Notes under the pieces: model-generated | Seen by the model: the letters and a program-made list of their open reading frames with translations, nothing else | Database searches by the model: none | What the model was told of the DNA's origin: nothing | Shown here: piece after piece, positions 2,099 through 24,378 of the stretch | Layout of the letters: each line of letters opens with the position of its first letter | Numbering within the stretch: position 1 is the first letter of the stretch | Program-made: the position numbers and the translations under genes | Source: a virus | Lineage: Duplodnaviria; Heunggongvirae; Uroviricota; Caudoviricetes | Direction: 5' to 3' (one strand) | Virus record (IMG/VR): IMGVR_UViG_3300045988_104440 | Location: 1 to 25,494 of that record | Length of the DNA: 25,494 nt

Positions 2099-2112
2099 TT
2101 TTCGTCACCTCC

Positions 2113-4560: not shown

Positions 4561-4980
4561 TCGTGTTTCCGCTTCGCCGGAGCGCCTTTTCGCGCCATGT
4601 GATGAGTTCGGTCAGGCTCATGGGATACAGTTCTGATGGCGGCCAGTGAAATATCACTGCCACATCCGCCATCAGGTCATCGACCGAGAGATTTTTCGGA
4701 AACGTCACTGCACCGAGTTCGGCGACAAAAAACCGACCACCTTACCGGCCAGCGCCACAAGGTCAGGCAGTTCCAGCGCGGCGACTTCCTGCTCGGTCAG
4801 CATCGGTGCCGTCATGCGCGGCAGCACTTTAATCAGTGCATCGACTTCGGAGTTCGCGACTGCAGCCAGACTGACACCGCGCAGCGTCCCGGCATTGGGT
4901 TTCATCAGCGTGACCTGTTCGATAACCTGCTCACCACGTTTGACCGGATTGTCCAAGGTAATGACGTTTTCTTTGTTCAT
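4553..4980 (-). CDS. E+E': E+E' fusion protein produced by a programmed -1 frameshift (about 142 aa)
   Basis: Hand translation of the -1 frame from the slippery site gives ...FFVAELGAVTFPKNLSVDDLMADVAVIFHWPPSELYPMSLTELITWREKALRRSGNTNE, stopping at TAA (4553..4555), which overlaps the T start codon (4558..4560). The total length is 143 codons. Confidence 0.65.
4705..4980 (-). CDS. E: Tail assembly chaperone E (91 aa)
   Basis: ORF between FII and T ending GFLSPNSVQ; contains the TTTTTTG slippery site near its 3' end. Confidence 0.8.
   Translation of the reverse strand: MNKENVITLDNPVKRGEQVIEQVTLMKPNAGTLRGVSLAAVANSEVDALIKVLPRMTAPMLTEQEVAALELPDLVALAGKVVGFLSPNSVQ
4726..4732 (-). other. Slippery heptamer T_TTT_TTG for the -1 frameshift in E
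   Basis: On the minus strand the E frame reads GGT TTT TTG; this is an X_XXY_YYZ heptamer at the position expected for the conserved tail-chaperone frameshift. Confidence 0.65.
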
Positions 4981-5036
4981 GGTTTTCTCACTTCTGAATC
5001 GGGGTTAACCGGTCAGCCAGGCTGACCGGATGAAAA

Positions 5037-5555
5037 TCACAGGCCGATATTGCGGCGGTGTTGCTCCAGCCGGTCGACGCCGTTCACCTTCTCAATCATG
5101 TTGATGGTGTCGATTTCGACCAGCTCCTTACCGTCCATCGTCAGCCGGAAATAGGTGCAGACCACGGAGATTTTCGACTCGGTGTCTTCTCCCTGTTTGC
5201 CCTCGCCGGTGTCGATTTCTTTCTGACGTCCACGCATGACCACCTCGACGGCCACCGTTTCGCCGGTATCGTCGCGCTGGTAAGAGCCTGCAAAACGAAT
5301 CGGTACGGCATCCACACCGGTTGCGGCGTAAAGCTCCCAGATAACCGAATCCGGGAAACCACCGAGCGACCACTCCATTGACAGCGCATCGTCATCAAGG
5401 CCGAGGTCTACCGGTGCGCTGCCGTTCATCCCCGCACCGCGATAGTTTTCGAGCTTACGGGTCAGTTTTGGCAGCGTGACGGACTTTGCAACGCCCTGAT
5501 AGCTGTAGCCGTTCAGAAAGACGTTCATTAACTTGAGTTTGCGCGGCATTGCCAT
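5037..5555 (-). CDS. FII: Tail tube protein FII (172 aa)
   Basis: ORF immediately downstream of the sheath gene; length and position equal P2 gpFII. Confidence 0.85.
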   Translation of the reverse strand: MAMPRKLKLMNVFLNGYSYQGVAKSVTLPKLTRKLENYRGAGMNGSAPVDLGLDDDALSMEWSLGGFPDSVIWELYAATGVDAVPIRFAGSYQRDDTGETVAVEVVMRGRQKEIDTGEGKQGEDTESKISVVCTYFRLTMDGKELVEIDTINMIEKVNGVDRLEQHRRNIGL

Positions 5556-5567
5556 CGGTCAGGCTCC

Positions 5568-6758
5568 TTAATTGCTATTAACCGAAGTGACCAGACTTGC
5601 CAGGTATCTGGAAGTAATACGCTGGCGCAGGGTCAGGTTTTCGAGAGGAGGCACCGGGGTATAGTCGTAGTCGATATACAGTTTTCCGGCCTTGAGGGTT
5701 TCCGCATCGTTGGATTCTTCGCTGAACCAGCAGGTCGCATCCACGATATAGCCGTTTGTTTTCAGCTCACGGAATTTGGCATTGATGCCGTCAACGATGT
5801 CGCGAATCAGCGTTGCGGTGATGGGCTTGTCCACCGCCCACATGTGCGCCTCAGCCATCGTATCGGCCAGCACCTGCGCGGTGCGGGTGTAGTTTTCAAA
5901 GAGGAACAGCGGGTCATCAGAGCAGGTACGGTTACCCCAGAAGCGGAAACCGTCACGGCGAATCAGCGTTGTGACACCTGACTCGTTCAACAGGTCAGCA
6001 TCGGTGCCGGACTCCTGCAAATCCCAGAATACAGATGCGCTGATGCCGGTAACACCGTTCACCCCGACATTGGACAGCGTTTTATGCCAGCCCTGCTCCT
6101 GGTCGATTTTAGCGCGCAGGCCCAGTGCACGGGCAGTGGCATACGCGGTGGCGGTGGTACTGGTGACCGTATCCCATGCGAGGAAATCCGGCCAGATGAC
6201 CATCAGCTCACGCTGGCTGAAATTCTGGCGGTAGGCTTTCACCTCGGAAATAGTCTTACATCCCCATGCGCTGATATACCCGAAAGCACGCAGCTTCTGA
6301 CAGACTGATGCCAGTGCAACAGCCACCTCTTTGGTATCCAGTCCCGGCACGCCGAGAATACGCGGTTTAACACCGGTTACCGACTCCGCCGCCAGCAGGG
6401 CTTTCAGTCCGGTGTACTGACCGTTTTCGTCGGTGGTGCCGATGATATTGGAAACGGTCTGCGCGAGTTTCGTTTCTTCGTCGTCGCCGGTGCCGTCTTC
6501 CACACGTACGACAACGGTGACCGGTTTTGACTGGTCGGCGATGGCCTGCAACGATGCCGCCAGCGTGCCTTTTTTACCAGCCTTTGCAATTGCGCTCTGC
6601 ACATTGGTAATCAGCACCGGTTTATTGAGGGGGAAGGTTTCCGCATCTGCATCGCTGGCCGTGCAGACCATGCCGACAATGGCCGTGGATACGGTGGAAA
6701 TGACGCGGGTGCCGTCGTTAATCTCCAGCACCTGCACGCCGTGATGATAGTCACTCAT
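5568..6758 (-). CDS. FI: Contractile tail sheath protein FI (396 aa)
   Basis: First gene of the FI-FII-E-T-U-D operon; length equals P2 gpFI. Confidence 0.85.
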   Translation of the reverse strand: MSDYHHGVQVLEINDGTRVISTVSTAIVGMVCTASDADAETFPLNKPVLITNVQSAIAKAGKKGTLAASLQAIADQSKPVTVVVRVEDGTGDDEETKLAQTVSNIIGTTDENGQYTGLKALLAAESVTGVKPRILGVPGLDTKEVAVALASVCQKLRAFGYISAWGCKTISEVKAYRQNFSQRELMVIWPDFLAWDTVTSTTATAYATARALGLRAKIDQEQGWHKTLSNVGVNGVTGISASVFWDLQESGTDADLLNESGVTTLIRRDGFRFWGNRTCSDDPLFLFENYTRTAQVLADTMAEAHMWAVDKPITATLIRDIVDGINAKFRELKTNGYIVDATCWFSEESNDAETLKAGKLYIDYDYTPVPPLENLTLRQRITSRYLASLVTSVNSN

Positions 6759-6881
6759 CCGTTTAACTCCGTGGTTAATGGGTGCAACTATTTTCTGTTG
6801 TGCAGAGCATGAGACGCTATTTGACCTGGCTGGTCAGGGGATGAAACAACAGATAAAGAAAATGCGGGCAATTCGCCCGCC

Positions 6882-6899
6882 TGTCCTGATTTGTACACA
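6882..6899 (-). promoter_or_regulatory. Ogr-type late promoter activator site (TGT-N12-ACA) of the FI operon
   Basis: Exact TGT-cctgatttgtac-ACA dyad 124..141 bp upstream of the FI start codon. The P2 late-promoter consensus TGT-N12-ACA is centred near -55. Confidence 0.45.
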
Positions 6900-7130
6900 C
6901 TCATTTTCCGACTGACTATTTAGATAGCCGAAACGCTATCAAATCTGACAGTCTGCTTTGAGCGAGGAGCGGAAGTTCGTAATTGTTCTCACCGTTAAGG
7001 GTCTAGTACTAACATTACCGTATGTTTATCAACGGGGACTACATCAGGCTAAATTCAGTGTGTCACAACCATTAACAAGATTTTCTGTAGCAATCGATAA
7101 CTACTTAAGTTAAAAATAGAAAACTAATCG

Positions 7131-7162
7131 TGTAGCTATAAATCGCTACAATAGACTCGGAG
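7131..7162 (+). promoter_or_regulatory. Candidate promoter/operator and ribosome-binding site for the cargo operon
   Basis: Perfect 6-bp inverted repeat TGTAGC (7131..7136) / GCTACA (7145..7150) flanking a TATAAAT -10-like element (7137..7143). GGAG (7159..7162) lies 6 nt before the ATG at 7169. Confidence 0.3.
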
Positions 7163-7168
7163 TTTGCA

Positions 7169-8395
7169 ATGTCAGATCAGCGTTTTATAAGTAAGATTCA
7201 GGATACTAGGGTTGATTGTTGGTCAGCTTTAGTTGAATTTAATGTTAAAGACTATCTTGGGCTTGCAGAAAAAGCTTACGTTAATAGAGGTGGTATACGA
7301 CATCAACGCGAAGCTCTTAAAACCACAACAGCGAAACGCATTCGCACTAGGCTCGTCGAGGACTTGAGGCGAGGCGCGGTAATCCCTCCTCTGGTCATTG
7401 GTATAGTCGCTGACAATGACGATTGGCAGACAATTGAAGGTATCTCAGAGTCCGAGCAAGTAAAGCAACTCCTTAAAAAATATTATGAAGAATTGTCGAT
7501 TATTGATGGGATGCAACGCACCACAGCTCTTAAAGAAGCATTAGCTTTAGATGAAAACGTAGCCGATCATGTGATTAGGGTAGAAGCCTGGATTGCGAAA
7601 GGCACAGAGAGTTTAATATATCGAATGCTTGTTTTAAACACTGGGCAGGTACCATGGAACCTGAAACAACAACTAGAGGTTGTTTATGCTCCACTTGTGA
7701 AAACTATTAGCCAAAAAGTCAACTTTCGTAGGCTTCTCTCTGCATCGGATAGACGATGGCAAGGAGGGGAGTTTAAAACATACTCGTTGATTGAGTCTTA
7801 TATAGCTTTTGGATTGCGTCGAACTGAGGTCGATACTCAAGAGAGTCTAGCCGATGAGTTTTCAAGGCTAGATATCGCAGAAGCGCTCACCAATAAAAAA
7901 TATGACCATTATTTTTATCGTGTCGTGCAAATGTTAGTTAATTTCGATATTGCGCTATCGATATATAATGAAGTGCAGAATATCGATATTGCAGACCCTT
8001 CTGAGGGTTCCGATAGTCTAGAGGTAGGAATAAAAGCCAGAAAATTAGTAAGAGGCCGAAATATTTTTGATACTCAAGCAGCGCGAGTTGGTTTTATCGT
8101 TGCTTGTGCAGTCAGCATCCTTGGCAGAGTTGGCATGGACAAGGAAGAAGAAGTCAGTGAAGAGAGATGTGCCTTACTAGAGGAATCTTGTGCTGCTCTT
8201 GTTAAAAGGATTACCGCCTTAAATAGAGAAAATTTAGAAGAATTTTTATCGCTAGATGTTTTAGCTGAAAAATTGTCCCGGAGACCGAGTTCAGCAGTTG
8301 GTAGATGGGAGCGGTCATTCTTTGAGGCTGCGTTCCGAGTATTAGTAGAAGAAAACTTTAATATACCCAACATGGAGCCATGCTGGCGGGCATAA
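7169..8395 (+). CDS. Hypothetical protein (408 aa), candidate ParB/DndB-like (DGQHR-type) protein; cargo gene 1
   Basis: Complete ORF with a GGAG ribosome-binding site. HQRE (aa 44-47) followed about 65 aa later by IIDGMQRTTAL (7504..7518 encodes DGMQR), resembling the QR...DGQ(Q/H)R signature of ParB/Srx-fold DndB/DUF262-like proteins. AT-rich, on the strand opposite to the late genes. Confidence 0.6.
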   Translation: MSDQRFISKIQDTRVDCWSALVEFNVKDYLGLAEKAYVNRGGIRHQREALKTTTAKRIRTRLVEDLRRGAVIPPLVIGIVADNDDWQTIEGISESEQVKQLLKKYYEELSIIDGMQRTTALKEALALDENVADHVIRVEAWIAKGTESLIYRMLVLNTGQVPWNLKQQLEVVYAPLVKTISQKVNFRRLLSASDRRWQGGEFKTYSLIESYIAFGLRRTEVDTQESLADEFSRLDIAEALTNKKYDHYFYRVVQMLVNFDIALSIYNEVQNIDIADPSEGSDSLEVGIKARKLVRGRNIFDTQAARVGFIVACAVSILGRVGMDKEEEVSEERCALLEESCAALVKRITALNRENLEEFLSLDVLAEKLSRRPSSAVGRWERSFFEAAFRVLVEENFNIPNMEPCWRA

Positions 8396-8396
8396 T

Positions 8397-9491
8397 ATGT
8401 CTAGAAATAAAATAGAAATGTCGACGGACATTTTTCAAAAAATACATGATTCTGCATCTGCTCAGGACTCTACGTACATAGCCGATAATGAAAAAAGATG
8501 GCTTGCTCGTAAAGATAACGAGGATTTAAACCTTATGATTAATGCAGAGGTTAACGTTCTTATTTTGGGGGCGAAGACGTTCGCCGTCTCTATTAAGAAT
8601 GGTTCTGATAACTACTTCTGTTTTAGCGGTTTAGATATCCCCGAACAACTTCCCGCCAGTCTCACTGAGATTGAGCCCACGCCTGGCATCTTTTCATGCG
8701 TTGTGTTCACCGTCAATCTCCCAGCATTAGCTACAGCGGCTAAGGCTAGAGACATTTTAGAACAGCAATACCTGGGGCAGGAAGGTTACGTCGGGCATGA
8801 ACTTAACGAGATCGCTCCACTCTTTCCAAAACTATACTTTGTTAAGGCTAACGAAAATATAAGCACTACTTTTTTAAATAATTTAGAGCGTGTAGCTGGT
8901 GCCTATATTGCTGCAGGATACGTTAGCCACCCTTTAGAGGTTAATGATAATTTAAAGTTGCGACTACTGTCTCTATTTGAAGTTGGAGCAGAAACCATAC
9001 CGTTTCGTCTACCTCTGCAGGGTCTATTATCTTATAATTGGTCATCGTTATTTTTGGATCTTTATCGATGCTTAGAGCAGTTATATACCGCGCAAAAGTT
9101 GAAAAATTTAGTCACTAAACTCCCATACAAAGGTACTTTGGCAGATCTCGCATATTTACTGGAAGATGAATTGTCATGGAGACCAAAAGAGCAGGATGCA
9201 TTAGCTAGTATACTGGCATGTTCAACTGAAAACACACGTTCGAAAATTCTATCTGCATTCAAACTCAACGTGCCCGAGTTAACCGAGTACTCGCCAAGCA
9301 AGTGCGCAAGTAATATATATAAGCTGAGGAATTCTCATGTTCATTTTCGCCCAGCAATGAAAGCAGAAAATAAACCCACCGAACAGTGGAATGAAATTTT
9401 GATAGCGATGTGTGATGCCGTTGATGACGTTTATGAAGCTCTCGGTGCTGAATTCTTAATAGATAGGTCAAACTTAGAGTCGGTCAGGTAA
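8397..9491 (+). CDS. Hypothetical protein (364 aa), unknown family; cargo gene 2
   Basis: Complete ORF starting 1 nt after the stop of cargo gene 1 (TAA-a-ATG), implying translational coupling. No motif I can assign confidently; a C-terminal R-x4-H (LRNSHVH, 9324..9344) is noted. Confidence 0.55.
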   Translation: MSRNKIEMSTDIFQKIHDSASAQDSTYIADNEKRWLARKDNEDLNLMINAEVNVLILGAKTFAVSIKNGSDNYFCFSGLDIPEQLPASLTEIEPTPGIFSCVVFTVNLPALATAAKARDILEQQYLGQEGYVGHELNEIAPLFPKLYFVKANENISTTFLNNLERVAGAYIAAGYVSHPLEVNDNLKLRLLSLFEVGAETIPFRLPLQGLLSYNWSSLFLDLYRCLEQLYTAQKLKNLVTKLPYKGTLADLAYLLEDELSWRPKEQDALASILACSTENTRSKILSAFKLNVPELTEYSPSKCASNIYKLRNSHVHFRPAMKAENKPTEQWNEILIAMCDAVDDVYEALGAEFLIDRSNLESVR

Positions 9492-9602
9492 TATGCATGA
9501 TTAAAATTGTCATGCGTAACCTAAGCTTATAATTTGTCTATCATATTCATCCTAGATAGATGACTCTATGCTCATCCCCCAGATGAATATATTACAAACC
9601 TT

Positions 9603-9625
9603 AAAAAGCCGTCCTTTAGGACGGC
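9603..9625 (-). terminator. Rho-independent terminator between the convergent cargo operon and gene G
   Basis: Hairpin GCCGTCC-ttta-GGACGGC (9608..9625) preceded on the plus strand by AAAAA (9603..9607), which is a U-tract for minus-strand transcripts. Only a weak T-run follows on the plus strand. Confidence 0.5.
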
Positions 9626-9924
9626 TGTAAACTCTATATTAAACTGGCTCTTACTTTTGCGAACACTGACTTCCACTTTTTATACAATGAAGGTCGAACA
9701 ATAAGAAAAAATCTCCGCTTATATTAACCAAAAGCATCTATTTGTTATCCACGTAATATCTTGCGCGATATAAACATACCAGCAGGTTTCTTAGCATTGA
9801 TCTGCTCCCCATTGATTAAAACAGCGTGATGTTTGCTATGTCCGTTCTTGGCACAGAGCGGACTGTCAAATTAGGCTTTACTCTGTGCCATAGATATGTA
9901 AGCTCCCACCAGAGCTCATACAAC

Positions 9925-10452
9925 TTATTGCGGCATTTCCGGCCATTCAGGATTTGTAGGATCCACACGACTGACCAGAACGCTGTAGCGTTCCCAAGCC
10001 TCCAGCCGTGTGCGCTCCTCCTCTGTTGCCATGTTCAGCCTGACAGCACGCTCTAGCGGCAAAATCACGGATTCAGCATCTGCAAGAAGTCTGGCTTTCC
10101 TGTTTTCTGCCTGCAGTTGCAATTCCTCTGCCGTATAAATTCGTTTGATCACTGTGCCATCCTTAAACATCCAGTTCCCTGAAATGTCCGCCCGTCGGTT
10201 AGCAGTAATATCCGCCACTTCAACAACACTTAATCCATCCGGTCTGATAGCTGTCACATCCTTTTCCACATAGCGGATGATATTATCTTTGTCGTACGCT
10301 ATTTTTATCGTGTCATCAGCAAAATACTTTTGTTCTTCGTACCAGTTCTTACCATCTTCTGAAAAAAACCAGACAACATCAAAATTCTTTGTCAATTGAT
10401 ATTGTTCAACCGTTTTTGGATTACCCGCCGTAATATTTTTTAAATGCTGCAT
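9925..10452 (-). CDS. G: Tail fibre assembly protein G (175 aa)
   Basis: ORF directly downstream of H with a 3-nt gap; length equals P2 gpG. Confidence 0.75.
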
Positions 10453-10455
10453 AAA

Positions 10456-12702
10456 TTATACCTGCGCCACGTTATACCATGTCCCGTTAATGTATTTCTG
10501 CACCGGTCTGTAATATACGCCACCAATGTTATCGGCAGAGTTTGAGCCGGTATCCTGAACAATAATGCCGGTATATACGCAACCTGACGGAGCCTGATGC
10601 GTCCATGTAGTACCATTATTTGCTGGTTTATATGTAGATGCACCGCCCAGTCGCATGTCTCTCACATAACGTGAATCTGACTCAGCTTTGGTGTATGCAC
10701 CAACATCTCCCGCTGATGGTTTTCGTGTTGTGGTATAGAAATCAGACCAGCCAGATTCAAAACCATAACCATCACGGGCTGACCTGTAAGATATACCGCC
10801 ATTTTTATAATTCACACGAAACTGTACAGCCGGGCAGCTACCAGCATTTATATTAAAGTGAAGAATTAATGCAGATGCTCCCCCAATCAGAGCGTTGTAT
10901 GCGCCACTGTCCCAATTCCATCCAACGGCTGTATCACCATTAACCGTATTACCTGTCTGCCGAAGTGCAAATGCACCGACATTTCTGGCATTAAGGGTAA
11001 TATCTCCAGAACCATCAAAGGCAACACCTGCTATTTTCCTCGGTGTTTCGAGTTTTGAGGCTGTTGCAGCATTTCCTGAAAGGTTGGAAATAAATGGATG
11101 TGAGCAGTAATAACCGCGCCCATTTTTAAAATCCAGAATAGCCTGTGCATTCGTGCTTTCTGTGGCAGGATTAGTTGCCCCCCACTTATATGTCGTCTGA
11201 CCGACGACATAATCCTCTGTCGGAACAATAACCGTTAGCCCTTCCTCTGCAAGAATTTGCACAGGGAAAGCTCTGGCTTCAACATAAAAAACACTACATA
11301 CATCATCATCTTTCAGGCTTGTAACAATGGAATGGATTGAACGCTCATTGGTCTGATACGTCCAGAAATAGCCTGCCGCATATGAACCGCGATCAGTCCA
11401 TCCTCCGGGCATAACCATGCCATTAAACTCGCAGTTATTCATTACATAATCGCCGTTATAACAACCAGTGGAAATAACGACGCGGGATGCCATTTCTCCT
11501 GAAAGGCTGGCAGCACGGCGAAAGATAACGGGATACCACTTCCCGGCAACGACATTTGCAGGGGCTGCAAACGAATACTTTCGCATTCCCTTTTTCTTAT
11601 CCACTTCACCTTTGCTGTAAACATTAATGTTACTCAGGAAGCGTTCTTTATCAGGAATATCCGCACCGTTCTTATCTTTCTGAAGACGTTTTTCAGCATT
11701 GTCATTGGCAGACTTCACCGCTTTTGGTGTTGCGGCCAGCGTTTCAGAATCACTGTTGGTGGCGCTACTGAGCTGGACAAGACCTTTTCGCGCTGTGGTG
11801 GCATCCTGTGCAGTGTATTTCCCGTTAGCAAGGTCATACGCTGTCTTAACCGCCTTTGGCGTTGCGGCCAGCGTTTCAGAATCGCTGTTGGTGGCACTAC
11901 TGAGCTGAACAAGGCCTTTTCGCGCGGTGGTGGCGTCCTGCGCGGTGTATTTGCCATTAGCAAGGTCATATGCTGCCTTAACCGCTTTTGGTGTTGCGGC
12001 GAGCGTTTCAGACGCGCTGCTGGTCGCACTACTGAGCTGGACAATACCTTTTCGCGCTGTGGTAGCGTCCTGTGCGGTATATTTCCCGTTAGCAAGGTCA
12101 TACGCGGCCTTTACCGCTTTCGGCGTTGCGGCCAGTGTTTCAGACGTGCTGTTGGTCGCATTGCTTAACTGAGTAAAACCTTTTGCGGTCAGCGAGGCGT
12201 CCGGGTGACGTCGTGACTGTTCATGCTCTGCAATTTTGTCATCAACGTAATCCTGCGTCGCCATCACCGTTGTGGTGTCAATGGTCAGCTCCACTGAGGC
12301 CACACTGCTGACGATGATGACCATGCGACAGGTCTGCGAACGCCCTGAGCCTTCGGCAAGAGCTGGCTTATAACTTTCGGCCATGTTCGCCACGGCAATT
12401 AATGTTCCCGCATCATCGTACAGGCCAAGCTCACGCATCCAGAAACCGCCCACCTCCGGCGGAATAACCAGCTCTGCGATAATATAATTACTGTTTCGTT
12501 TGTCCTGGCTGATTTTGTTCAGCGCATGTCGCCAGACTTCATGGATAAGCCCGGTCTGTCCGGCATCCGGGACAGGCAATTTACCACCGCCATCCCCGAC
12601 GGCCATCGTGGTAATGTTGACCTTCCGCCCTCCCGGCGCGGTTGCCGCTGCCAGCTTTGCTGCACCGGCAGTGGTGATAACGGTTCTGAATTTTGTGCTC
12701 AT
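10456..12702 (-). CDS. H: Tail fibre protein H (748 aa) with internal tandem repeats
   Basis: Long ORF after baseplate genes I/J. Contains four 44-aa repeats with the SETLAATPKAVK(A/T)AYDLANGKYTAQDATTARKG motif. Longer than the 669 aa I recall for P2 gpH. Confidence 0.85.
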   Translation of the reverse strand: MSTKFRTVITTAGAAKLAAATAPGGRKVNITTMAVGDGGGKLPVPDAGQTGLIHEVWRHALNKISQDKRNSNYIIAELVIPPEVGGFWMRELGLYDDAGTLIAVANMAESYKPALAEGSGRSQTCRMVIIVSSVASVELTIDTTTVMATQDYVDDKIAEHEQSRRHPDASLTAKGFTQLSNATNSTSETLAATPKAVKAAYDLANGKYTAQDATTARKGIVQLSSATSSASETLAATPKAVKAAYDLANGKYTAQDATTARKGLVQLSSATNSDSETLAATPKAVKTAYDLANGKYTAQDATTARKGLVQLSSATNSDSETLAATPKAVKSANDNAEKRLQKDKNGADIPDKERFLSNINVYSKGEVDKKKGMRKYSFAAPANVVAGKWYPVIFRRAASLSGEMASRVVISTGCYNGDYVMNNCEFNGMVMPGGWTDRGSYAAGYFWTYQTNERSIHSIVTSLKDDDVCSVFYVEARAFPVQILAEEGLTVIVPTEDYVVGQTTYKWGATNPATESTNAQAILDFKNGRGYYCSHPFISNLSGNAATASKLETPRKIAGVAFDGSGDITLNARNVGAFALRQTGNTVNGDTAVGWNWDSGAYNALIGGASALILHFNINAGSCPAVQFRVNYKNGGISYRSARDGYGFESGWSDFYTTTRKPSAGDVGAYTKAESDSRYVRDMRLGGASTYKPANNGTTWTHQAPSGCVYTGIIVQDTGSNSADNIGGVYYRPVQKYINGTWYNVAQV
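11713..12200 (-). repeat. In-frame 132-bp tandem repeat array (about 3.7 copies) inside H
   Basis: Units begin at 11713, 11845, 11977 and 12109, exactly 132 bp apart; the last copy is more diverged. This explains the spurious ORFs on both strands here. Confidence 0.75.
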
Positions 12703-12712
12703 TATTCCTCAC

Positions 12713-13243
12713 TTATCCGGGGTAAACCGTAATTACATCGCCGTCATAAGCCACACCACCGACGAACAGGTAGCCGGGAATGTCCCGGGTAATGTTCAGA
12801 CCAATAAGGTGGCGGCTTGCAGGTTTGGCATCAGCAATCAGCCGTTCCATTTCCTGATACATTGCCTCTGTGATACCGCTTTCCAGTACACCAATATCAA
12901 GCCGGAAGGTGCCGGGCGGGTCACTGTTTTCCCACCACTCCGTCACGTTGATGAGATAGCCGAGCGGCTCCACCACACGCCGGATTGCACCTATAGTGCC
13001 CTTATGACAGTGGATGAAATAGGCATCGCGGATAACGGCGCGTTTTGTCGCTTCCGGCCACTTTTCATCCCACCTGTCGACCGAAAACGCCCACGCCAGC
13101 CACGGCAGCAAATTTGCCGGGCAGGTGTCCGGGTTCCACAGCTCACGAATCCTGACCGGCGTTTTTTCAATTTCCGCACAGGCTTTTGCGGCGGCGACTT
13201 CAAGCGGTGATGAGCCGGTCGGCAGCAGTCGCGAATCACTCAT
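12713..13243 (-). CDS. I: Baseplate protein I (176 aa)
   Basis: Position between J and H; 8-nt overlap with J; length equals P2 gpI. Confidence 0.8.
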   Translation of the reverse strand: MSDSRLLPTGSSPLEVAAAKACAEIEKTPVRIRELWNPDTCPANLLPWLAWAFSVDRWDEKWPEATKRAVIRDAYFIHCHKGTIGAIRRVVEPLGYLINVTEWWENSDPPGTFRLDIGVLESGITEAMYQEMERLIADAKPASRHLIGLNITRDIPGYLFVGGVAYDGDVITVYPG

Positions 13244-14144
13244 CCGAGCCTCCGGTCACGACGCGGTATTCAGTACAGAAAGACGCCTGCGTACTGTTGA
13301 GCACGATGTCGGCCAGCGGAGCAGTCAGTTCGACACGCTGCACGCCTTCCACATGCAAAGCGGCATAAATGGCAGACAGACGGATGTCGCGCCCCAGCCG
13401 GTGCTGTGCCGTGATATACGCTTCCAGTTTTTTCACGGCGGCCGCGCGAATGGGTTCGCTTTCAGGACCAGGGTAAAGGTAAAGCGTGGCGTTTATCTGG
13501 TATTCAACGATGGCAGCAGACTGCACGGTCACGCGGTCGGCCACCGGTCTGACGTCCTCGCCATTAAGGGCGTTACGCACCACAGCCAGCAGGTCTTCGG
13601 ATGCGACACCGTTATTTTCACGTGACAGCACAGAGATGGTGACACAGGCCGGAGACGGACTGGTGACAGAGATATCCGCGACACGCCCGTCGGCACTGCG
13701 ACCATGATACTGATAGGCGCCCACCGACCCGGCGACGCTTAAACCTTCAAACGCCTGCTGAATACGCAGACGATAATCCGTGTCAGATTCCATCACTGCC
13801 GGTGTCGGCGGAATGGTCGAATCATCTGCCGGGGTGATAATCAGGCGCGTGGTGTTGTAATTGGCACCAATCACATCAAGGTCATTACCGGCGGCACAGG
13901 CCAGCATCACCGCCCGTGCGGCCTCATTCACACGCTGACGCCAGATAAGCTCACGATAAGCATTTTCCTCCAGCAGTTTGACGAGAGGCTCAGATTCCAG
14001 CGTCAGGGTACGGGCGACCGCCTCCTGCTGGTCTTCCGGGTAAAGGGAAATCAGTGTCGCCTTGCGTTCAGCGAGAATGGTTTCAAAGTCCAGCTCCTCG
14101 ACCACATCCGGTGCGGGTAGCTGGTTCAGGTCGATAATCGGCAT
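13236..14144 (-). CDS. J: Baseplate protein J (302 aa)
   Basis: Position after W; length equals P2 gpJ. Confidence 0.8.
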   Translation of the reverse strand: MPIIDLNQLPAPDVVEELDFETILAERKATLISLYPEDQQEAVARTLTLESEPLVKLLEENAYRELIWRQRVNEAARAVMLACAAGNDLDVIGANYNTTRLIITPADDSTIPPTPAVMESDTDYRLRIQQAFEGLSVAGSVGAYQYHGRSADGRVADISVTSPSPACVTISVLSRENNGVASEDLLAVVRNALNGEDVRPVADRVTVQSAAIVEYQINATLYLYPGPESEPIRAAAVKKLEAYITAQHRLGRDIRLSAIYAALHVEGVQRVELTAPLADIVLNSTQASFCTEYRVVTGGSDE

Positions 14145-14148
14145 GGTT

Positions 14149-14496
14149 TCAACTCACAGGGATGGTTAACGAAAGTGGCTGGCCGGTGTCGTTGTGCTGG
14201 CCGGTTAACGTGACCGTCATTCGCCCGTCAAAGCTGCGCGCCGTAGTGACGGATGACAGGGTGACGCGGGGTTCCCATTTCAGCACCGCCATGTAACAGG
14301 CGACCTTAATCTGCAACTCAAGTGCCGGGGTCTGCGGCTGGTCAATCATTGACGCCAGCAATGAGCCGTAATCACGACGCATCACCCGTGAGCCGACCGG
14401 CGTGCGCAGGATATCGCCGATACTCTGGCTGATATGCTCAAGGTCAGTGACAGTCAGGCCATCACTGCGATTCATTCCAAGATAACGCGCTGTCAT
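14149..14496 (-). CDS. W: Baseplate wedge protein W (115 aa)
   Basis: Position after V with a 4-nt overlap (ATGA); length equals P2 gpW. Confidence 0.8.
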   Translation of the reverse strand: MTARYLGMNRSDGLTVTDLEHISQSIGDILRTPVGSRVMRRDYGSLLASMIDQPQTPALELQIKVACYMAVLKWEPRVTLSSVTTARSFDGRMTVTLTGQHNDTGQPLSLTIPVS

Positions 14497-15128
14497 AGAG
14501 GACTCCCGGTTGTGCCGCCGCTGTCGCCGGGGTGTTTATGGGTATGCAGTACCTTACCGTTTGATGAGAGTTCACCGCCGGTATGTTTAATGTTGCCGCG
14601 CATCGTCCCGCCCTTCTGCACTTCCAGCGTGCCGGTAATCAGTCTGTTGGTGCAGACCACCTCCGGGGTGTCCAGGGTGATGCGGGTTGACGCTTTCACC
14701 GTGACTACCGGTACCGTGGCAGTAACAGAATCAGAAGCCGTCACGCTGGCCGTTTTAATTCCGCTTACCGTGAGTGCACTGGTTTCGGGTTCATACTCAA
14801 TCACCGCCCCGTCAGGGAAACGGATATGCAGGGCATCCGCCGACGCAGACGGCGCGGGGTTATCGCCGGAATAAATCCCCGGCAGAACAAACGCCGTGTC
14901 AAGTTCACCGCCCACGGCCAGAATCAGCACCTGCTCCCCCACGGAAGGTGCCCACCATGTGCGCGAACGCCCGGCACGACAGGTCAGCCACTGAAGCCAG
15001 TCGGTGCACATGCCGCCGGTCTGCACACGGCAGCGACCGGCGTTAAGGTCGGTTTCGACGACAAGGCCGGTGCGAATCATGTTGCGCAGTGCGCGCGCGA
15101 GTTCCTGAATATTTGCGAGAGTGTTCAT
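14493..15128 (-). CDS. V: Baseplate spike/hub protein V (211 aa)
   Basis: First gene of the V-W-J-I-H-G operon; length equals P2 gpV. Confidence 0.8.
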   Translation of the reverse strand: MNTLANIQELARALRNMIRTGLVVETDLNAGRCRVQTGGMCTDWLQWLTCRAGRSRTWWAPSVGEQVLILAVGGELDTAFVLPGIYSGDNPAPSASADALHIRFPDGAVIEYEPETSALTVSGIKTASVTASDSVTATVPVVTVKASTRITLDTPEVVCTNRLITGTLEVQKGGTMRGNIKHTGGELSSNGKVLHTHKHPGDSGGTTGSPL

Positions 15129-15194
15129 AACGGGAAGGATGCCGCCGGGTCATACCGGCGGCAATGTGACGATGAGGTGTCGGGAATGGCACAA

Positions 15195-15647
15195 CTAACG
15201 GTCGAGGTGCGCCAGAATAATCTCTTCAATCATCTGCACATCCTCACCGGTAAAGCCGAGCAGGGGACGCGCCGGATAATCAATTTTCTTACCGTCTTTC
15301 CGGGTTTCTTCCGACAGACCGAACTGATGCACACTGGCGATTTTCGGCGACTTCCCGCCGTAAAATTCCATTGATGCCTGTTCCGGGCTGGCGCGGATAT
15401 GCAAAAAACGACTGGTGATAAGTTTCGCAAACATTTTTCGCTTAACACGACCAGTCTTTTTTCTGGCGCTCTGCTGCTGGCGTGGCGCGTAGGGTGTGCC
15501 GTCCGGGGCTTTCTGAGCCATCACCCGACGCTGCTGACTCTGCCGCAGACGTTTCGCCAGTTCGGCGCTCAGTCGCCGACGCCCTGACGGTGACAGCGAT
15601 TCAGTCAGTCCGGTCAGCCGGTCTTCAAAACGCTTAAACTCATTCAT
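15195..15647 (-). CDS. S: Tail completion protein S (150 aa)
   Basis: Position after R with an 8-nt overlap; length equals P2 gpS. Confidence 0.8.
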   Translation of the reverse strand: MNEFKRFEDRLTGLTESLSPSGRRRLSAELAKRLRQSQQRRVMAQKAPDGTPYAPRQQQSARKKTGRVKRKMFAKLITSRFLHIRASPEQASMEFYGGKSPKIASVHQFGLSEETRKDGKKIDYPARPLLGFTGEDVQMIEEIILAHLDR

Positions 15648-16107
15648 CCCACTTGCTCACCAGTTCGCCATTGATATAAAGCTCCACCGGGCGGGTGACC
15701 GGCTCCGGCGGCGTGGGTTCCGGGATATTCTTCACATGCAGTGCGCCGTCCACCTCACTGACCAGCGTGCGCTCGGTCAGCATCAGGCTGATGCTGATAT
15801 CAAAGCTACTGTCATTGTTGATGTCTGCATAAAACGTGAAGCCCTTTTTCTGGCCTGCGTCGGTGGTCATGATGTCGGGCTGATTTTCCCGCAGCCACGC
15901 CAGCACCGGCACGATGAGCAGGTCAAAATCACCGGTAAAGTCGGTCACAATCACATTGAGCGTGTAACGCTTTTCGAATGACAACGACGTCGCCAGCGTG
16001 GAGGCAATACTCCCGTTATCAACGAATATCCGCAGCATCTCGGGACTGGTTTTCAGCACCGTGACGGCATCAGTCAGCGCCCTGCGCAGGCTGTCGGGTT
16101 TGAGCAT
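15640..16107 (-). CDS. R: Tail completion protein R (155 aa)
   Basis: Position after the lysis cassette; length equals P2 gpR. Confidence 0.8.
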   Translation of the reverse strand: MLKPDSLRRALTDAVTVLKTSPEMLRIFVDNGSIASTLATSLSFEKRYTLNVIVTDFTGDFDLLIVPVLAWLRENQPDIMTTDAGQKKGFTFYADINNDSSFDISISLMLTERTLVSEVDGALHVKNIPEPTPPEPVTRPVELYINGELVSKWDE

Positions 16108-16360
16108 CGTTTTCGTCCTGACAGTGTTTAATCATTTTTACCTGGCTGGCACAGCGTGCCAGCGCGTTCTCAAGCTGTCGGATATCGGCACTTAAATCGC
16201 CGTTCGTCTCCGGGTCACTGCCCGGCATCGGGCAAAGGCTCACTTTCGGGCAGGCGTTGGCGACAATCACTGGCGTCGGTGCAGGCCGGGCGCTGGTGCA
16301 ACCGGCGCACAGCATCAGGCAGGCCAGCGCCGTACCAGCGGCGAAAATCTTCGTTTTCAT
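16070..16360 (-). CDS. lysC: LysC, Rz1-like outer-membrane lipoprotein spanin (96 aa)
   Basis: N-terminus MKTKIFAAGTALACLMLCAGC has a signal peptide with a lipobox-like cysteine, followed by a proline-rich segment. The gene starts inside lysB in another frame and overlaps R. Confidence 0.65.
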   Translation of the reverse strand: MKTKIFAAGTALACLMLCAGCTSARPAPTPVIVANACPKVSLCPMPGSDPETNGDLSADIRQLENALARCASQVKMIKHCQDENDAQTRQPAQGAD

Positions 16361-16640
16361 TCAGTAACCTCGTGATGGTTTTCTCGCGCTGTGCTTCACG
16401 CTTCGCCGCGTTCTCCAGTTCCTGACGCAGTGCCACCTGCGCCAGCTCGTTTTTGTCTGCTCTGGCGAGGGCAACATGAAGCTGATTTTTCAGCATGGTG
16501 ATGGTCGTCTGCTGCCCGTTGGCGACGTTGTTCGCCCTGTCCAGCGAGGTGCGCAGGCTGGCGTTTTCATGCTTCGCCAGAAACAGACCGGCCACCGCCA
16601 GTGATAACAACACAACCAGCACAATCATCAGCTTTGACAT
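16215..16640 (-). CDS. lysB: LysB, Rz-like inner-membrane spanin (141 aa)
   Basis: N-terminal transmembrane helix (LMIVLVVLLSLAVAGLFLA) followed by a charged coiled-coil-like region. Length and position equal P2 LysB. Confidence 0.7.
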   Translation of the reverse strand: MSKLMIVLVVLLSLAVAGLFLAKHENASLRTSLDRANNVANGQQTTITMLKNQLHVALARADKNELAQVALRQELENAAKREAQREKTITRLLNENEDFRRWYGAGLPDAVRRLHQRPACTDASDCRQRLPESEPLPDAGQ

Positions 16641-17053
16641 GGTTCCCTCCCCTCAAAACGCTGACGACAGGCCGTGCGTATCAACCGGAAGAACACCGAC
16701 GCCACGAGGTAAATCAGCGCGGTAAAAATCCACCCGGCAGCGACCAGCGAGATAAACGTCGCCACCATCACCACCAGAGCCGCCGCCCGTCTGCGCCACG
16801 GCACCGGCTGCAAAAACAGCGACGCGACAATCTTCACGGCCAGCGATTCCGGCGGCAGCTCCCGCCCGTAGCGTTCCAGCACATACTCAGTGGCATACAC
16901 GCCGACACCACCGGCAACCACACAGATAACCGTCGCCAGAATCGCCCAGGCGGCGACAAAATTGACGGCCACGCTCTGCGGGTAAATCAGGGACAGTGCC
17001 AGCATCAGCGCCAGCGACACGTTCAGCATCAGTGAAAGGGATAATTTCTTCAT
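16628..17053 (-). CDS. lysA: LysA, membrane protein of the lysis cassette (141 aa)
   Basis: Several hydrophobic helices; position after K. Length equals P2 LysA. Confidence 0.65.
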   Translation of the reverse strand: MKKLSLSLMLNVSLALMLALSLIYPQSVAVNFVAAWAILATVICVVAGGVGVYATEYVLERYGRELPPESLAVKIVASLFLQPVPWRRRAAALVVMVATFISLVAAGWIFTALIYLVASVFFRLIRTACRQRFEGREPCQS

Positions 17054-17067
17054 GGTGTTTACTCCGT

Positions 17068-17565
17068 TTAAGCCGGTACGCCGCCAGCGGTACGCCAGAC
17101 GGTGACCAGTTTTTCCAGTGAATGCTCACGCTGACCGTAACCGGCACCCGGCAGGGACGCCCAGATATTGCGACAGCGTGAAATGGCGCGCTCAATGCGT
17201 CCCGCCCGGATGTCATCCAGTGCACCGCGTTCGCGGATCAACTGAATGGCAAGTCTGTCCTGTGACAACGGACTGAAATCCGGCAGGGCAAGCTGTTTGC
17301 GGTAATGCGGCCAGAACAGGTAAAGCTGCTGATAGCGACCGGAGGCCGTGGATTTTTCACCGCGACGGTTAAACACCTTCGCCGGTCGGCCATGTGCGAA
17401 CGGGTGGTCACTGTAGTCGGTGAAAATTTCCGGCTTCCCGTCCAGTCCGGTGACTATCACGTCATAGCCCCGGTTTTTCGTCAGCGGATGGTTTGCCGTC
17501 CCTTCGGACACGGCCAGCATGTCGAGAAAGGCGGCGATATTCTGATGCGTGTTAATAACCGGCAT
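17068..17565 (-). CDS. K: Endolysin K (165 aa)
   Basis: Position after holin Y with a 1-nt overlap; length equals P2 gpK. Confidence 0.8.
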   Translation of the reverse strand: MPVINTHQNIAAFLDMLAVSEGTANHPLTKNRGYDVIVTGLDGKPEIFTDYSDHPFAHGRPAKVFNRRGEKSTASGRYQQLYLFWPHYRKQLALPDFSPLSQDRLAIQLIRERGALDDIRAGRIERAISRCRNIWASLPGAGYGQREHSLEKLVTVWRTAGGVPA

Positions 17566-17846
17566 TACGGTTTCCCCCTGCCCTTAAAGCGGCGCTGAAT
17601 GGCAATCTCAATCACCTGATAACCGGCGATACCCAGCATGGAGCCGATACCGCACACCGCAGGCAGTGACAGGTCAGGAAACTGCACCAGAACAACACCG
17701 GCAACCATCGAGACAAAACCACCGAGCAACATGCGCCCGATAAACAGACGCGGGGTGATGGGTTCACCACCGGCAAGCACCTTGCCGACAACAATCAGCA
17801 CCCCAATCATGAAAAGCGACAGGACGCTTTTTTCTTCTGCTGTCAT
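17565..17846 (-). CDS. Y: Holin Y (93 aa)
   Basis: Small protein with hydrophobic helices and a basic C-terminus (RRFKGRGKP); length and position equal P2 gpY. Confidence 0.75.
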   Translation of the reverse strand: MTAEEKSVLSLFMIGVLIVVGKVLAGGEPITPRLFIGRMLLGGFVSMVAGVVLVQFPDLSLPAVCGIGSMLGIAGYQVIEIAIQRRFKGRGKP

Positions 17847-17849
17847 GCG

Positions 17850-18053
17850 TTACTCCCACAGATTGACAGTTTCAGCCACGGGCGCGGTCTGAACGTCGGG
17901 CAGTTCGACGGCGGTGCCGTGCGGCAGCACCGCGCCCAGTTCAGCCAGTCCCGGATTTGCGGCGAGCACGGTCTCAACCACGCCCTCAGTGCGCCCGTAA
18001 TACCGGACACAAATGGCGTCGAGCGTGTCGCCCTGTAGCGCAAAGGTCTTCAT
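17850..18053 (-). CDS. X: Tail protein X (67 aa)
   Basis: Internal Met of the 90-aa ORF gives a 67-aa product starting MKTFALQGDTLDAICVRYYG; position between L and Y as in P2. Confidence 0.7.
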   Translation of the reverse strand: MKTFALQGDTLDAICVRYYGRTEGVVETVLAANPGLAELGAVLPHGTAVELPDVQTAPVAETVNLWE

Positions 18054-18562
18054 CAGATTTGACTCACGATGCAGCGCGGCTTGTCCTGGATACGCGCCAC
18101 CGCCCAGCGCATATCCCGCCACAGCTCATCAATGGTGCTGTCAATGCTGTCAGCCTTCTTGTCGCCTTTCGCACTGGCATCCACGCCGCGATAACGCTCA
18201 TAAAGCGACGCGGTCGCCATCGCACACACGGCGCGCTCGTAGTAAAAAACTTTGATGCTTTCACCGTCGATATCGTCCGCCGGGACGTCCGCCAGACGCG
18301 TAAAACCGGCGGCAATTTTCTGTTCGCGGTACTCGTACAGCTCCGCATTCGTCTCCGCCATGCCTGACTTGATGGCCTCACGCAGACGGGCGGGGGCGAC
18401 GGTCTGCTCAAGGCGCATACGTTCCCGGACGCGCTTCGGGTCGATATCGGGAAAAAAGAACGTGTTTTTAATCACCGGCTCGTCGCCTGCCGGTTGCGGG
18501 ATGACCACCGTACCCTCACCGGATACAGGAGCCTCCTTTCGCGGAATAATCAGCGTCATCAT
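18053..18562 (-). CDS. L: Head completion protein L (169 aa)
   Basis: The 189-aa ORF trimmed to the Met starting MMTLIIPRKE gives 169 aa, equal to P2 gpL; position after M. Confidence 0.7.
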   Translation of the reverse strand: MMTLIIPRKEAPVSGEGTVVIPQPAGDEPVIKNTFFFPDIDPKRVRERMRLEQTVAPARLREAIKSGMAETNAELYEYREQKIAAGFTRLADVPADDIDGESIKVFYYERAVCAMATASLYERYRGVDASAKGDKKADSIDSTIDELWRDMRWAVARIQDKPRCIVSQI

Positions 18563-18660
18563 GACCACCTCTGAAAAGTCGGGCGGTGGACGCCGGTACA
18601 GTGTCAGGTGATTCACCCTCACTGACCGGCGTGCCGCCCTGGCGCGGGGCGCATTCGTTG

Positions 18661-19404: not shown

Positions 19405-19407
19405 CGG

Positions 19408-20481: not shown

Positions 20482-20539
20482 AGTTTTTCCTGAAATTAAG
20501 GGTTAATCGTGAAGGTTTTCCCGGACTGACTGACGCCGG

Positions 20540-21394: not shown

Positions 21395-21567
21395 TGTCAG
21401 GAGTCCTGAATAGTGATTAGAGGAGTCACATGTCGGCATCAGTTTCCCGACGATGCGCATCTTCCGCCATCAGTCCCGGATGGCTTATCACTGACACAAC
21501 AGCACCTTAGCGAATCGCGGGGCGCGACTCAGTAGCCTTGCCGTGTATTCATCACGGCGAGGTATTC

Positions 21568-24374: not shown

Positions 24375-24378
24375 ACAT

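Follow-up and report, generated by a model that had tools for sequence, protein, structure and literature searches.

The distal tail fibre and chaperone of a P2-like prophage form a mosaic, probably built from separately exchanged units

Domain layout of tail fibre H and chaperone G

The window, that is the whole stretch of 25,494 nucleotides that was analysed, is a P2-like (Peduovirus) prophage, and positions 9925-11700 encode the distal half of its tail fibre H, the part that recognises the receptor, together with the chaperone G. Both gene calls of the initial annotation are confirmed by Pfam: H (10456-12702, minus strand) matches PF12571 (E 1e-58) and PF03406 (E 1e-78), and G (9925-10452, minus strand) matches PF02413 (E 1.5e-33); NCBIfam returned no match for H, G or the neighbouring cargo proteins. 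On the open reading frame map, H lies in the V operon, flanked by the baseplate gene I on one side and by G on the other, with G adjoining it directly at the 3′ end (H stop codon 10456-10458, G start 10452). The order of I, J, W, H and G, all identified with Pfam, is colinear with the P2 annotation.

H starts with an N-terminal baseplate-attachment domain of the backbone type (aa 1-172, 12187-12702, minus strand like every segment of H and G; GC 0.558), of which residues 1-151 match Phage_tail_fib (PF12571, E 1.3e-58). The nucleotide identity of this domain is 98-100% to P2, Wphi, 12474III, fiAA91-ss and 9W and about 78% to P24C9, P22H1 and L-413C. The shaft that follows (aa 173-337, 11692-12186) consists of four 44-aa Phage_fiber_2 repeats, which PF03406 covers in four stretches (E 1e-78) and in which the motif ETLAATPKAVK begins at residues 188, 232, 276 and 320. 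At the DNA level the array has a 132-bp period (TRF: period 132, 3.4 copies, 11713-12160) and was also found as repeat family D1; the number of repeats implied by the end positions of the last repeat is four here, about three in fiAA91-ss and about two in P2 and Wphi.

The proximal junction (11602-11707) comprises the hinge motif KDKNGADIPDKERFLSNINVYSKGEV (aa 342-367, 11602-11679) and a change point in GC content at 11707. Beyond the hinge lies the mid module, a beta-rich globular domain of about aa 368-540 (11083-11601) that few Peduoviruses carry, and the boundary between mid and tip modules is formed by the conserved linker SGNAATASKLETPRKIAGVAFDGSGDITL (aa 542-570, 10993-11079). The tip domain (aa 572-673, 10684-10989) is a putative receptor-binding region of the Mu S′ type with a match to PDB 8ju3, and the C-terminal segment of H (last 75 aa plus stop codon, 10456-10683) co-travels with the N-domain of G. 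G itself divides into a variable, fibre-binding N-domain (aa 1-85, 10198-10452, PF02413, GC 0.365) and a conserved helical C-domain (aa 86-175 plus stop codon, 9925-10197) that is not AT-rich (GC 0.52); its residues 1-175 align end to end with the Mu chaperone Tfa U (PDB 5yvq_B, E 1.4e-82). Downstream of G, the conserved segment 9836-9924 (minus strand) is a left homology arm common to all P2-like phages and carries the hairpin GGCACAGAG...CTCTGTGCC.

Base composition of the fibre module

Over 9925-11691 (1767 bp), GC content is 0.449 by sliding-window and per-segment calculation; windows of the same length taken from the backbone (456-6758 and 12187-24374) average 0.570 (sd 0.014, minimum 0.543). 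GC is not uniform along H. A likelihood search over H and I placed the best change point at 11707, immediately beyond the final 44-aa Phage_fiber_2 repeat (GC 0.451 to the left and 0.554 to the right; LLR 14.8, the highest of 200 shuffles reaching 6.4), in agreement with the boundary at 11700 that the initial annotation had drawn. GC3 is 0.275 in H aa 541-700, 0.404 in H aa 338-540 and 0.353 in G aa 1-85, the 21 backbone genes ranging from 0.59 to 0.73. The claim that distal H and G are AT-rich holds for distal H and for the strongly AT-rich 5′ half of G (10198-10452, GC 0.365) but not for the 3′ half (9925-10197, aa 86-175), whose GC of 0.520 and GC3 of 0.516 lie near the lower edge of the backbone.

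The GC profile is alike in P2-, Mu- and P1-type alleles (distal H 0.44-0.49, G N-domain 0.36-0.38, G C-domain 0.50-0.535). Because every allele of the locus, P2's own included, drops in the same way, low GC is not a mark of recent import; it belongs to the whole pan-phage pool of fibre-tip genes, and because the alleles all look alike, neither the direction nor the timing of transfer can be read from composition. It is comparison between phages that shows the exchange. For genome scans this calls for caution, since low GC at H-G reflects a pool of genes that phages have long shared, not recent import.

With all alleles AT-rich, composition alone would also fit a locus-specific mutational or selective regime, under which G and the distal half of H diverged rapidly in place through point mutation, diversifying selection and relaxed codon usage, without exchange. 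We consider such divergence very improbable: identity drops off abruptly, from 97% to nothing over tens of bases, at 11654-11700 and again at 10510; the stretch 10510-11700 has no detectable nucleotide similarity to P2 and yet matches the fibre genes of lambdoid and P1-like phages at 76-80% identity, exact matches of 35-45 bp included; and the combinations of alleles are discordant, in a four-gamete pattern. The annotated contexts of the lambdoid and P1-like genes argue against the matches being misassembled P2 fragments.

Discordant partners along H and G

The backbone is 94-98% identical at the nucleotide level to the eight Peduoviruses compared, and the sub-modules of H and G are discordant among these phages in presence as well as in identity. 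As judged from sequence comparison, at least four units assort separately, namely the mid domain (H aa 338-540), the tip (aa 572-673), the last 50-75 or so residues of H with the N-domain of G, and the C-domain of G. H 11083-11690 matches only 9W and P22H4, whereas P2, Wphi, 12474III, fiAA91-ss, P24C9, P22H1 and L-413C lack it; the mid module, carried among phage records by these two alone, is 98.7% identical in nucleotides in 9W. At about 11082 one set of matching phages gives way to another, and the P2-type homology of 12474III stops at 11654. The tip (aa 572-673) is absent from P2 and Wphi and has 82% amino acid identity to D108 S′, 12474III H and a P1-like S, and 78% to P24C9, P22H1 and L-413C. 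For the last 75 aa of H, amino acid identity is 95-100% in 9W, P24C9, P22H1 and fiAA91-ss and 46-52% in P2, Wphi, 12474III, L-413C and D108 S. Every 50-bp window of 10200-10600 is at least 90% identical in nucleotides to P24C9, P22H1 and fiAA91-ss, identity being about 62-88% over 10600-11080, and G with the C-terminal segment of H (query positions 1-753) is found at 92-93% nucleotide identity among the E. coli genome matches sampled.

The N-domain of G falls into two allele classes, at 95-98% or 64-74% amino acid identity, which track the class of the H C-terminus, and the nucleotide identity of this half is likewise bimodal by phage (96-98% or 71-75%). H C-terminus and G N-domain belong to matching classes in all Peduoviruses compared (8/8). 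In a Mantel test, which is indicative only, given that its 13 fibre-chaperone pairs are related and its global alignments had fixed offsets, the H C-terminus correlated with the G N-domain (rho 0.56, p 2e-4), the preceding tip segment giving rho 0.14 (p 0.10), and the G C-domain likewise correlated with the H C-terminus in the same set (rho 0.69). This C-domain has 76-92% amino acid identity to that of every Peduovirus compared, of D108 U and of one P1-like Tfa, and only 47% to D108 U′ and a second P1-like Tfa class. Its coding half is finely patchy, with 10000-10050 at 82% vs 9W and 96% vs fiAA91-ss.

The full allele sits in 9W and P22H4 (97.2-97.6% nucleotide identity; 99.8% amino acid identity in 9W) and was found in three phage records and in 72 of 5,426 complete E. 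coli genomes. The exact H protein appears in the index of 41 collection blocks, and of the contigs that bear it 23 were read; a scan with the distal 386 aa of H over one genome per species gave a single match, on a 3.7-kb MAG contig, too little to bear on host distribution. As 9W and P22H4 hold the whole block in one continuous alignment, the latest event could have moved it whole between Peduoviruses. That a single cassette swap brought in the whole of 9925-11700 from one donor lineage is nevertheless improbable, as its partners differ by segment within the block. P24C9, P22H1 and fiAA91-ss share the G N-half and the H C-terminus at 95-100% but the adjacent tip at only 68-78% of amino acids; the tip is 82% identical to that of 12474III, and yet the C-terminus of 12474III H is only 52% identical; all four of these phages lack the mid domain; and the G C-half is only about 90% identical in nucleotides to 9W, with fiAA91-like patches.

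The initial annotation had seen here an exchanged receptor-binding module and a mosaic host-range cassette. Exchange is borne out, the distal half of H and G not co-clustering with the other late genes and parts of both recurring in lambdoid, P1-like, lambda-like and Mu/D108 lineages; the cassette does not, however, behave as one unit, since at least four sub-modules assort separately. The finding is correct but ordinary, because exchange of tail-fibre modules, and with it mosaicism of tip and chaperone, is a well-known phage route to a new host range; the whole allele has already been sequenced in isolated phages.

Recurrence of the mid domain, hinge and linker outside P2-like phages

The mid domain is 82% identical in amino acids (80% in nucleotides) to the P1-like pO157 Sv cassette, which is plasmid-borne and adjoins a recombinase, 76.5% identical in nucleotides to the lambdoid PM7 Stf, which adjoins J-lom at the bio locus, and 57% identical in amino acids to the lambda-like 2H10 Stf, with matches of 30-40% amino acid identity in T5-like, rV5-like and Aeromonas T4-like fibres. 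The domain circulates among lambdoid Stf proteins, P1-like S cassettes and T5-like, rV5-like and T4-like fibres.

The AF2 model of the mid domain is of moderate confidence (pLDDT 69.6). Searched against PDB folds, the model gave no match at E <= 1e-3 and only low-probability matches to beta-sandwich and jelly-roll folds; against BFVD it matched tail fibres alone, in internal parts of long ones. It is conceivable, if rather unlikely, that the mid domain (H aa ~368-540) is an autonomous second receptor- or glycan-binding module. If so, the fibre would have two specificities, one in the mid domain and one in the Mu S′-type tip, and the mid domain would be a portable host-range determinant across myovirus and siphovirus boundaries.

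Within 11599-11643 the hinge has exact matches of 45 bp with a lambdoid Stf and of 35 bp with a P1-like cassette, and it aligns to residues 99-172 of Mu S. Many unrelated tail fibres give short matches in PHROG and tblastn searches that land exactly on the linker SGNAATASKLETPRKIAGVAFDGSGDITL. Tip and chaperone are homologous to the Mu S′/U and P1-like S/U cassettes, which undergo inversion in their own phages, and the hinge lies at what we take to be the position of gix in Mu S; these likenesses would suit a programmed switch, be it an inversion of the Mu G-segment or P1 C-segment type or a diversity-generating retroelement, in place of a fixed mosaic. We give such a switch next to no credence, as significant inverted repeats are missing in and around H-G (only weak inverted matches of 18-29 nt with 76-83% complementarity), and neither a second inverted cassette nor a template/variable repeat pair was found; direct repeats of at least 35 nt amount to the shaft array and one chance pair. 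Among the window ORFs examined there was no serine invertase, recombinase or reverse transcriptase, the long ORFs examined being P2 genes or cargo.

The 45-bp island at the hinge (11599-11643), which is perfectly conserved, was also considered as a dedicated or relic crossover site resembling gix or cix and was rejected: it has no inverted partner, and the hinge 81-mer is present in only six phage records. The likeness of the hinge to Mu gix presumably extends to one half-site only, in a different reading frame.

A defence cargo next to the fibre module

At the position where P2 has fun(Z) lies a cargo island (6978-9835, plus strand) with DzbA (7169-8395), a DzbB-like gene (8397-9491) and 344 bp of non-coding DNA. 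PADLOC identifies the two genes as a Dazbog defence pair, with E 2.8e-50 for DzbA and a weak match for DzbB (E 1.2e-3). Backbone homology breaks on both flanks of the cargo, at 6965-6977 and at 9836-9840, and all Peduovirus alignments start at 9836-9841. The cargo DNA has no match among 5,426 complete E. coli genomes, and the cargo site between G and FI is not discussed in Rousset et al (2022; PMC9122126). This H-G allele is also found with Shedu, S1-peptidase, RES, Sll1717-ATPase and other cargos, and the cargo is swapped independently of the fibre module. A composite accessory zone of 6.8-11.7 kb, as had been proposed, is upheld insofar as cargo and fibre module are both exchanged, but the two are independent units, separated by a conserved, GC-normal spacer of about 360 bp (9836-10197).

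Proposed mechanism of exchange and its consequences

The locus is very probably best explained by distal units of H and G that were exchanged separately on a P2 backbone through recombination at linkers, with the H C-terminus and G kept matched. In this reading, the N-terminal domain of H docks on the baseplate and the four 44-aa repeats make the shaft; past the hinge KDKNGADIPDKERF come the beta-rich mid domain, the linker SGNAATASKL...FDGSGDITL and the Mu S′-type tip, and G acts on the last 50-75 or so residues of H. Distal units have been swapped one by one among P2-like, Mu-like, P1-like and lambdoid phages, and the positions of the breakpoints suggest that phages and prophages residing in the same cell likely exchange them by homologous recombination, with the short conserved linkers as crossover points. 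The matching constraint would be limited to the H C-terminus and G, which do co-segregate, and the outcome would be an altered receptor specificity on an otherwise invariant P2 virion. Horizontal transfer of P2 H and G among unrelated phages was reportedly described by Haggard-Ljungquist, Halling and Calendar in 1992 (reference 10 in PMC13100340).

P2 binds LPS via H, and chimeric H retargets P2 (PMC9594776). From these experiments and the homology of the tip to Mu S′, H would be expected to bind the receptor and to act in host range, and the receptor is probably a variant of the LPS core, as for P2 and Mu. According to PMC9608196 (citing North et al, 2019), the N-domain of Tfa binds the fibre tip in Mu, and the C-domain is conserved. 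The C-terminal region of the Mu fibre is where the N-domain binds, and trimerisation, starting from the C-terminus, is believed to be driven by the C-domain.

Modules of tip and chaperone set the reach of a phage or of a P2/P4-based transducing particle, and since they decide which bacteria are targeted, a breakpoint-level map is useful for engineering chimeric P2 fibres, as it separates the pieces that travel alone from those tied to the chaperone. Current understanding is unchanged by the H-G result.

Comparison with known systems

From invertible switches (Mu G segment, P1 C segment, e14 P segment) the locus differs in having neither an invertase ORF nor opposed cassettes, and from diversity-generating retroelements in having no reverse transcriptase among the examined ORFs and no template/variable repeat pair. 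To Mu and D108, whose S′ and Tfa U/U′ belong to the invertible G segment, it is related in several parts: H aa 572-673 are 82% identical to S′ in amino acids, H aa 572-746 match the S/S′ chimera of Mu (PDB 8ju3, domain i-E-value 5e-59), the hinge and the last shaft repeat align to the constant part of Mu S, and G, aligned end to end with Mu U (5yvq, E 1.4e-82), shares the two-domain Tfa logic set out in PMC9608196. Unlike Mu and D108, the locus lacks a Gin invertase, inverted repeats and a second cassette; H reaches an identity of only 41-48% to S′/S over its last 75 aa; and the S′-type tip is combined with a G C-domain nearer to U (76%) than to U′ (47%).

With P1-like S/U cassettes (E. coli O22:H8 plasmid, NZ_CP067430) and lambdoid Stf/Tfa (E. 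coli PM7 prophage at bio; phage 2H10), H shares the mid domain, at 82% amino acid identity to Sv and 57% to 2H10 Stf, as well as 76-80% nucleotide identity and the exact 35-45 bp matches at the hinge. These phages differ in wholly different virion backbones and in the other tips and chaperones that they carry on that mid domain, lambdoid Tfa having about 30-44% amino acid identity to G over short local alignments.

P2 itself has the same order V-W-J-I-H-G, followed by the cargo site and then FI, the same GC profile across the locus, an H with 98% amino acid identity over aa 1-172 and the same type of repeat, and a G that is likewise 175 aa long. In contrast, the shaft has four repeats here and an inferred two or so in P2, nucleotide similarity to P2 H is absent over the distal 410 aa, and identity to P2 is 48% in the last 75 aa of H and 68% in the N-domain of G. 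The distal part of H is said to have been recognised as common to unrelated phages by Haggard-Ljungquist, Halling and Calendar in 1992, a principle that applies here. 9W (OM475431) and P22H4 (NC_049385) carry other cargo between G and FI, and in 9W the C-half of G is about 90% identical in nucleotides, with patches nearer to fiAA91-ss; but H-G forms one continuous alignment of 97.2-97.6% nucleotide identity with both phages, the distal 407 aa of H and the N-domain of G are 99.8% and 98% identical in 9W, and the allele is the same.

Composition and context of the tail fibre genes

The late region of the window is P2-like (Peduovirus) and lies on the minus strand, as seen from the ORF map and Pfam matches, with the gene order D, U, T, E, FII, FI, [cargo], G, H, I, J, W, V, S, R, lysis genes, L, M, N, O; the plus strand carries a cargo pair between FI and G, and P and Q after O. 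It matches the gene order annotated in P2, 9W and 12474III. The tail fibre gene H (10456–12702, minus strand) encodes 748 aa (PF12571, E 1e-58; PF03406, E 1e-78) and its assembly chaperone gene G (9925–10452, minus strand) 175 aa (PF02413, E 1.5e-33). An assembly artefact was rejected because an NCBI assembly contig (GCA_012045535.1) matches the window at 99.97% identity and the identical H protein recurs in 41 indexed collection blocks, 23 contigs with it having been inspected.

The initial annotation had judged distal H and G AT-rich by eye. The computed GC of 9925–11691 is 0.449, compared with 0.570 (sd 0.014, minimum 0.543) in backbone windows of equal length, and a likelihood change-point search over H and I placed a break within H at 11707 (LLR 14.8 versus at most 6.4 in 200 shuffles), just past the end of the array of four 44-aa shaft repeats. 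GC3 is 0.59–0.73 in 21 backbone genes versus 0.404 for H aa 338–540, 0.275 for H aa 541–700 and 0.353 for G aa 1–85. The AT shift thus holds for distal H and the 5′ half of G, but not for the 3′ half of G (9925–10197, GC 0.52). The alleles of P2, Wphi, L-413C, fiAA91-ss, P24C9, D108 (S/S′ with U/U′) and a P1-like cassette share one profile, with GC 0.44–0.49 in the distal half of H, 0.36–0.38 in the G N-domain and about 0.50–0.535 in the G C-domain (D108 U′, 0.484). Since all examined alleles have it, low GC marks a shared fibre-tip gene pool. Composition is no evidence for recent arrival, and exchange of H–G is shown by comparative data only.

Discordant modules within H and G

We compared the window with eight Peduoviruses (9W, P2, Wphi, 12474III, fiAA91-ss, P24C9, P22H1 and L-413C). 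Whereas the backbone (T–FI, I–V, S–L) is 94–98% identical in nucleotides throughout, the H–G region breaks up into units with discordant partners. The H N-domain (aa 1–172) is 98–100% identical in nucleotides to 9W, P2, Wphi, 12474III and fiAA91-ss versus only ~78% to P24C9, P22H1 and L-413C. Between these two allele classes, the divergent stretch (12187–12800; comparison loci L007, L008 and L010) runs on into baseplate gene I at its 3′ end (78–82% at 12700–12800), which suggests that the baseplate-docking fibre end may co-vary with gpI. The 44-aa (132-bp) shaft repeat (11692–12186) differs in copy number between otherwise near-identical phages, with four copies, judged from last-repeat end positions, in the window, 9W and 12474III, about three in fiAA91-ss and about two in P2 and Wphi, which would alter fibre length.

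Among the Peduoviruses compared, the mid module (11083–11690) is present only in 9W (98.7% nt) and a further relative, P22H4; the other seven of the eight have no nucleotide similarity to it. Its other matches are a lambdoid side tail fibre adjoining J-lom at the bio locus (76.5% nt), a variable S cassette that neighbours a recombinase gene in a P1-like plasmid (80% nt, 82% aa) and Stf of the lambda-like phage 2H10 (57% aa); at 30–40% aa it also resembles internal stretches of fibres from T5-like, rV5-like and Aeromonas T4-like phages. An AF2 model of the mid domain (28 sequences) is beta-rich and of moderate confidence (pLDDT 69.6, pTM 0.67); it had no PDB neighbour at E ≤ 1e-3, and its BFVD neighbours are internal long-tail-fibre segments (JenK1, Vibrio phi 3, Aeromonas phiAS4 gp37, phage navn). 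A structural role or a second binding site are candidate functions.

The tip (aa 572–673) shares 82% aa with Mu/D108 S′, 12474III H and P1-like S, and 78% with P24C9, P22H1 and L-413C; P2 and Wphi lack it. The structure of a Mu S/S′ chimera (8ju3) aligns to H aa 572–746 (domain i-E-value 5e-59). The last 75 aa of H are 95–100% identical to 9W, P24C9, P22H1 and fiAA91-ss versus 46–52% to P2, Wphi, 12474III, L-413C and D108 S, and the G N-domain (aa 1–85) divides the eight phages alike (95–98% or 67–72%). Against P24C9, P22H1 and fiAA91-ss, each 50-bp window of 10200–10600 is at least 90% identical, the neighbouring tip ~62–88%. The G C-domain shares 76–92% aa among Peduoviruses, D108 U and one P1-like Tfa. 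In a Mantel test, indicative only given its small sample of 13 related fibre–chaperone pairs, the G N-domain correlated with the final 60 aa of H (rho 0.56, P = 2e-4) but not with the tip segment just before them (rho 0.14, P = 0.10).

G aligns over its full length to Mu Tfa U (5yvq_B, E 1.4e-82). In Mu, the variable Tfa N-domain attaches to the C-terminal part of the fibre, and the conserved, helical C-domain is believed to drive trimer formation starting at the C-terminus (PMC9608196, citing North et al. 2019). This explains why only the H C-terminus stays paired with G, the more proximal modules assorting freely. The proposed receptor-binding cassette is exchanged, with partners differing from those of the backbone, but not as a single unit: compared separately, the distal modules match lambdoid, P1-like and Mu/D108 fibres and do not co-cluster with the late backbone.

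Module borders and exchange

Module borders fall on short, widely conserved motifs: the hinge KDKNGADIPDKERFLSNINVYSKGEV (11602–11679), the linker SGNAATASKLETPRKIAGVAFDGSGDITL (10993–11079), the H-end/G-start junction and the 89-bp segment that follows G, with which homology to all P2-like phages sets in again (9836–9841). The hinge region 11599–11643 has exact matches of 45 bp with lambdoid Stf and 35 bp with the P1-like cassette. Homologous recombination at such islands (hinge, linker, H/G junction, post-G segment), between co-resident phages and prophages, would be the likely route of exchange. Programmed switching, an alternative, is excluded in this phage, as no invertase, significant inverted repeat, second cassette or template/variable repeat pair was found in the window.

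The adjoining cargo island and other variable sites

The AT-rich cargo island (6978–9835, plus strand) occupies the P2 fun(Z) position and holds a Dazbog-like pair (genes 7169–9491). For the 408-aa protein, PADLOC gives a DzbA match (E 2.8e-50) and Pfam weak GmrSD_N/DndB matches; for the 364-aa protein, PADLOC gives only a weak DzbB match (E 1.2e-3) and Pfam none. The island borders (6965–6977 and 9836–9840) are identical against every relative, and none of 5,426 complete E. coli genomes matched the cargo DNA, even though the prophage around it is common. Next to the same H–G allele, other contigs carry different cargos (Shedu, S1 peptidase, RES, Sll1717-type ATPase, a DUF3606 set, a 340+333-aa pair); cargo and fibre module are therefore exchanged independently. 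A conserved, GC-normal stretch (9836–10197) separates them and can act as homology arm for both. The suggested composite accessory zone is made up of these two units.

A hairpin, AGCCGTCC-TAAA-GGACGGCT followed by a T-run (9600–9625, minus strand), was read from the sequence and is absent from the consensus scan's list; it is likely the V operon terminator. It sits in cargo-specific DNA, outside the conserved post-G segment; terminators may therefore come with the individual cargo islands.

The right end (24600–25494) is also AT-rich (GC 0.28–0.30). An ORF running off it (24894–25494, plus strand) encodes the N-terminus of an AAA_13 ATPase (Walker A GHNGCGKST; PF13166, E 4e-18). The ORF sits immediately beyond Q, at P2's other variable cargo locus, and is thus probably another accessory or defence gene. 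A third variable spot, between V and S (15129–15194; comparison loci L002, 11135–11920, and L014, 2742–3497), is empty in the window and 9W, holds the 786-bp orf30 in P2 and 12474III, and a 251-aa gene in CP057876.1, an otherwise near-identical prophage. In L016 (Logan contig ERR15358167_18), 5622–5932 is joined to 5931–14247, so that window 24286–24596 (past Q) abuts 12772 (inside gene I); the contig thus lacks everything from the remainder of gene I to Q, and a SIR2/DUF87 cargo pair precedes H. It represents either a defective prophage that has suffered a deletion or a chimeric assembly.

Relation to known fibre exchange

The initial observation is confirmed and its interpretation supported with these refinements. 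The isolates 9W and P22H4 already carry this exact H–G allele, as do 72 of the 5,426 complete E. coli genomes. Distal H–G exchange is itself a known phenomenon: Haggard-Ljungquist and colleagues reportedly described in 1992 (reference 10 of PMC13100340) that distal P2 H and G are horizontally exchanged with Mu, P1 and lambda fibres. That a chimeric H retargets P2 has been shown experimentally (PMC9594776).
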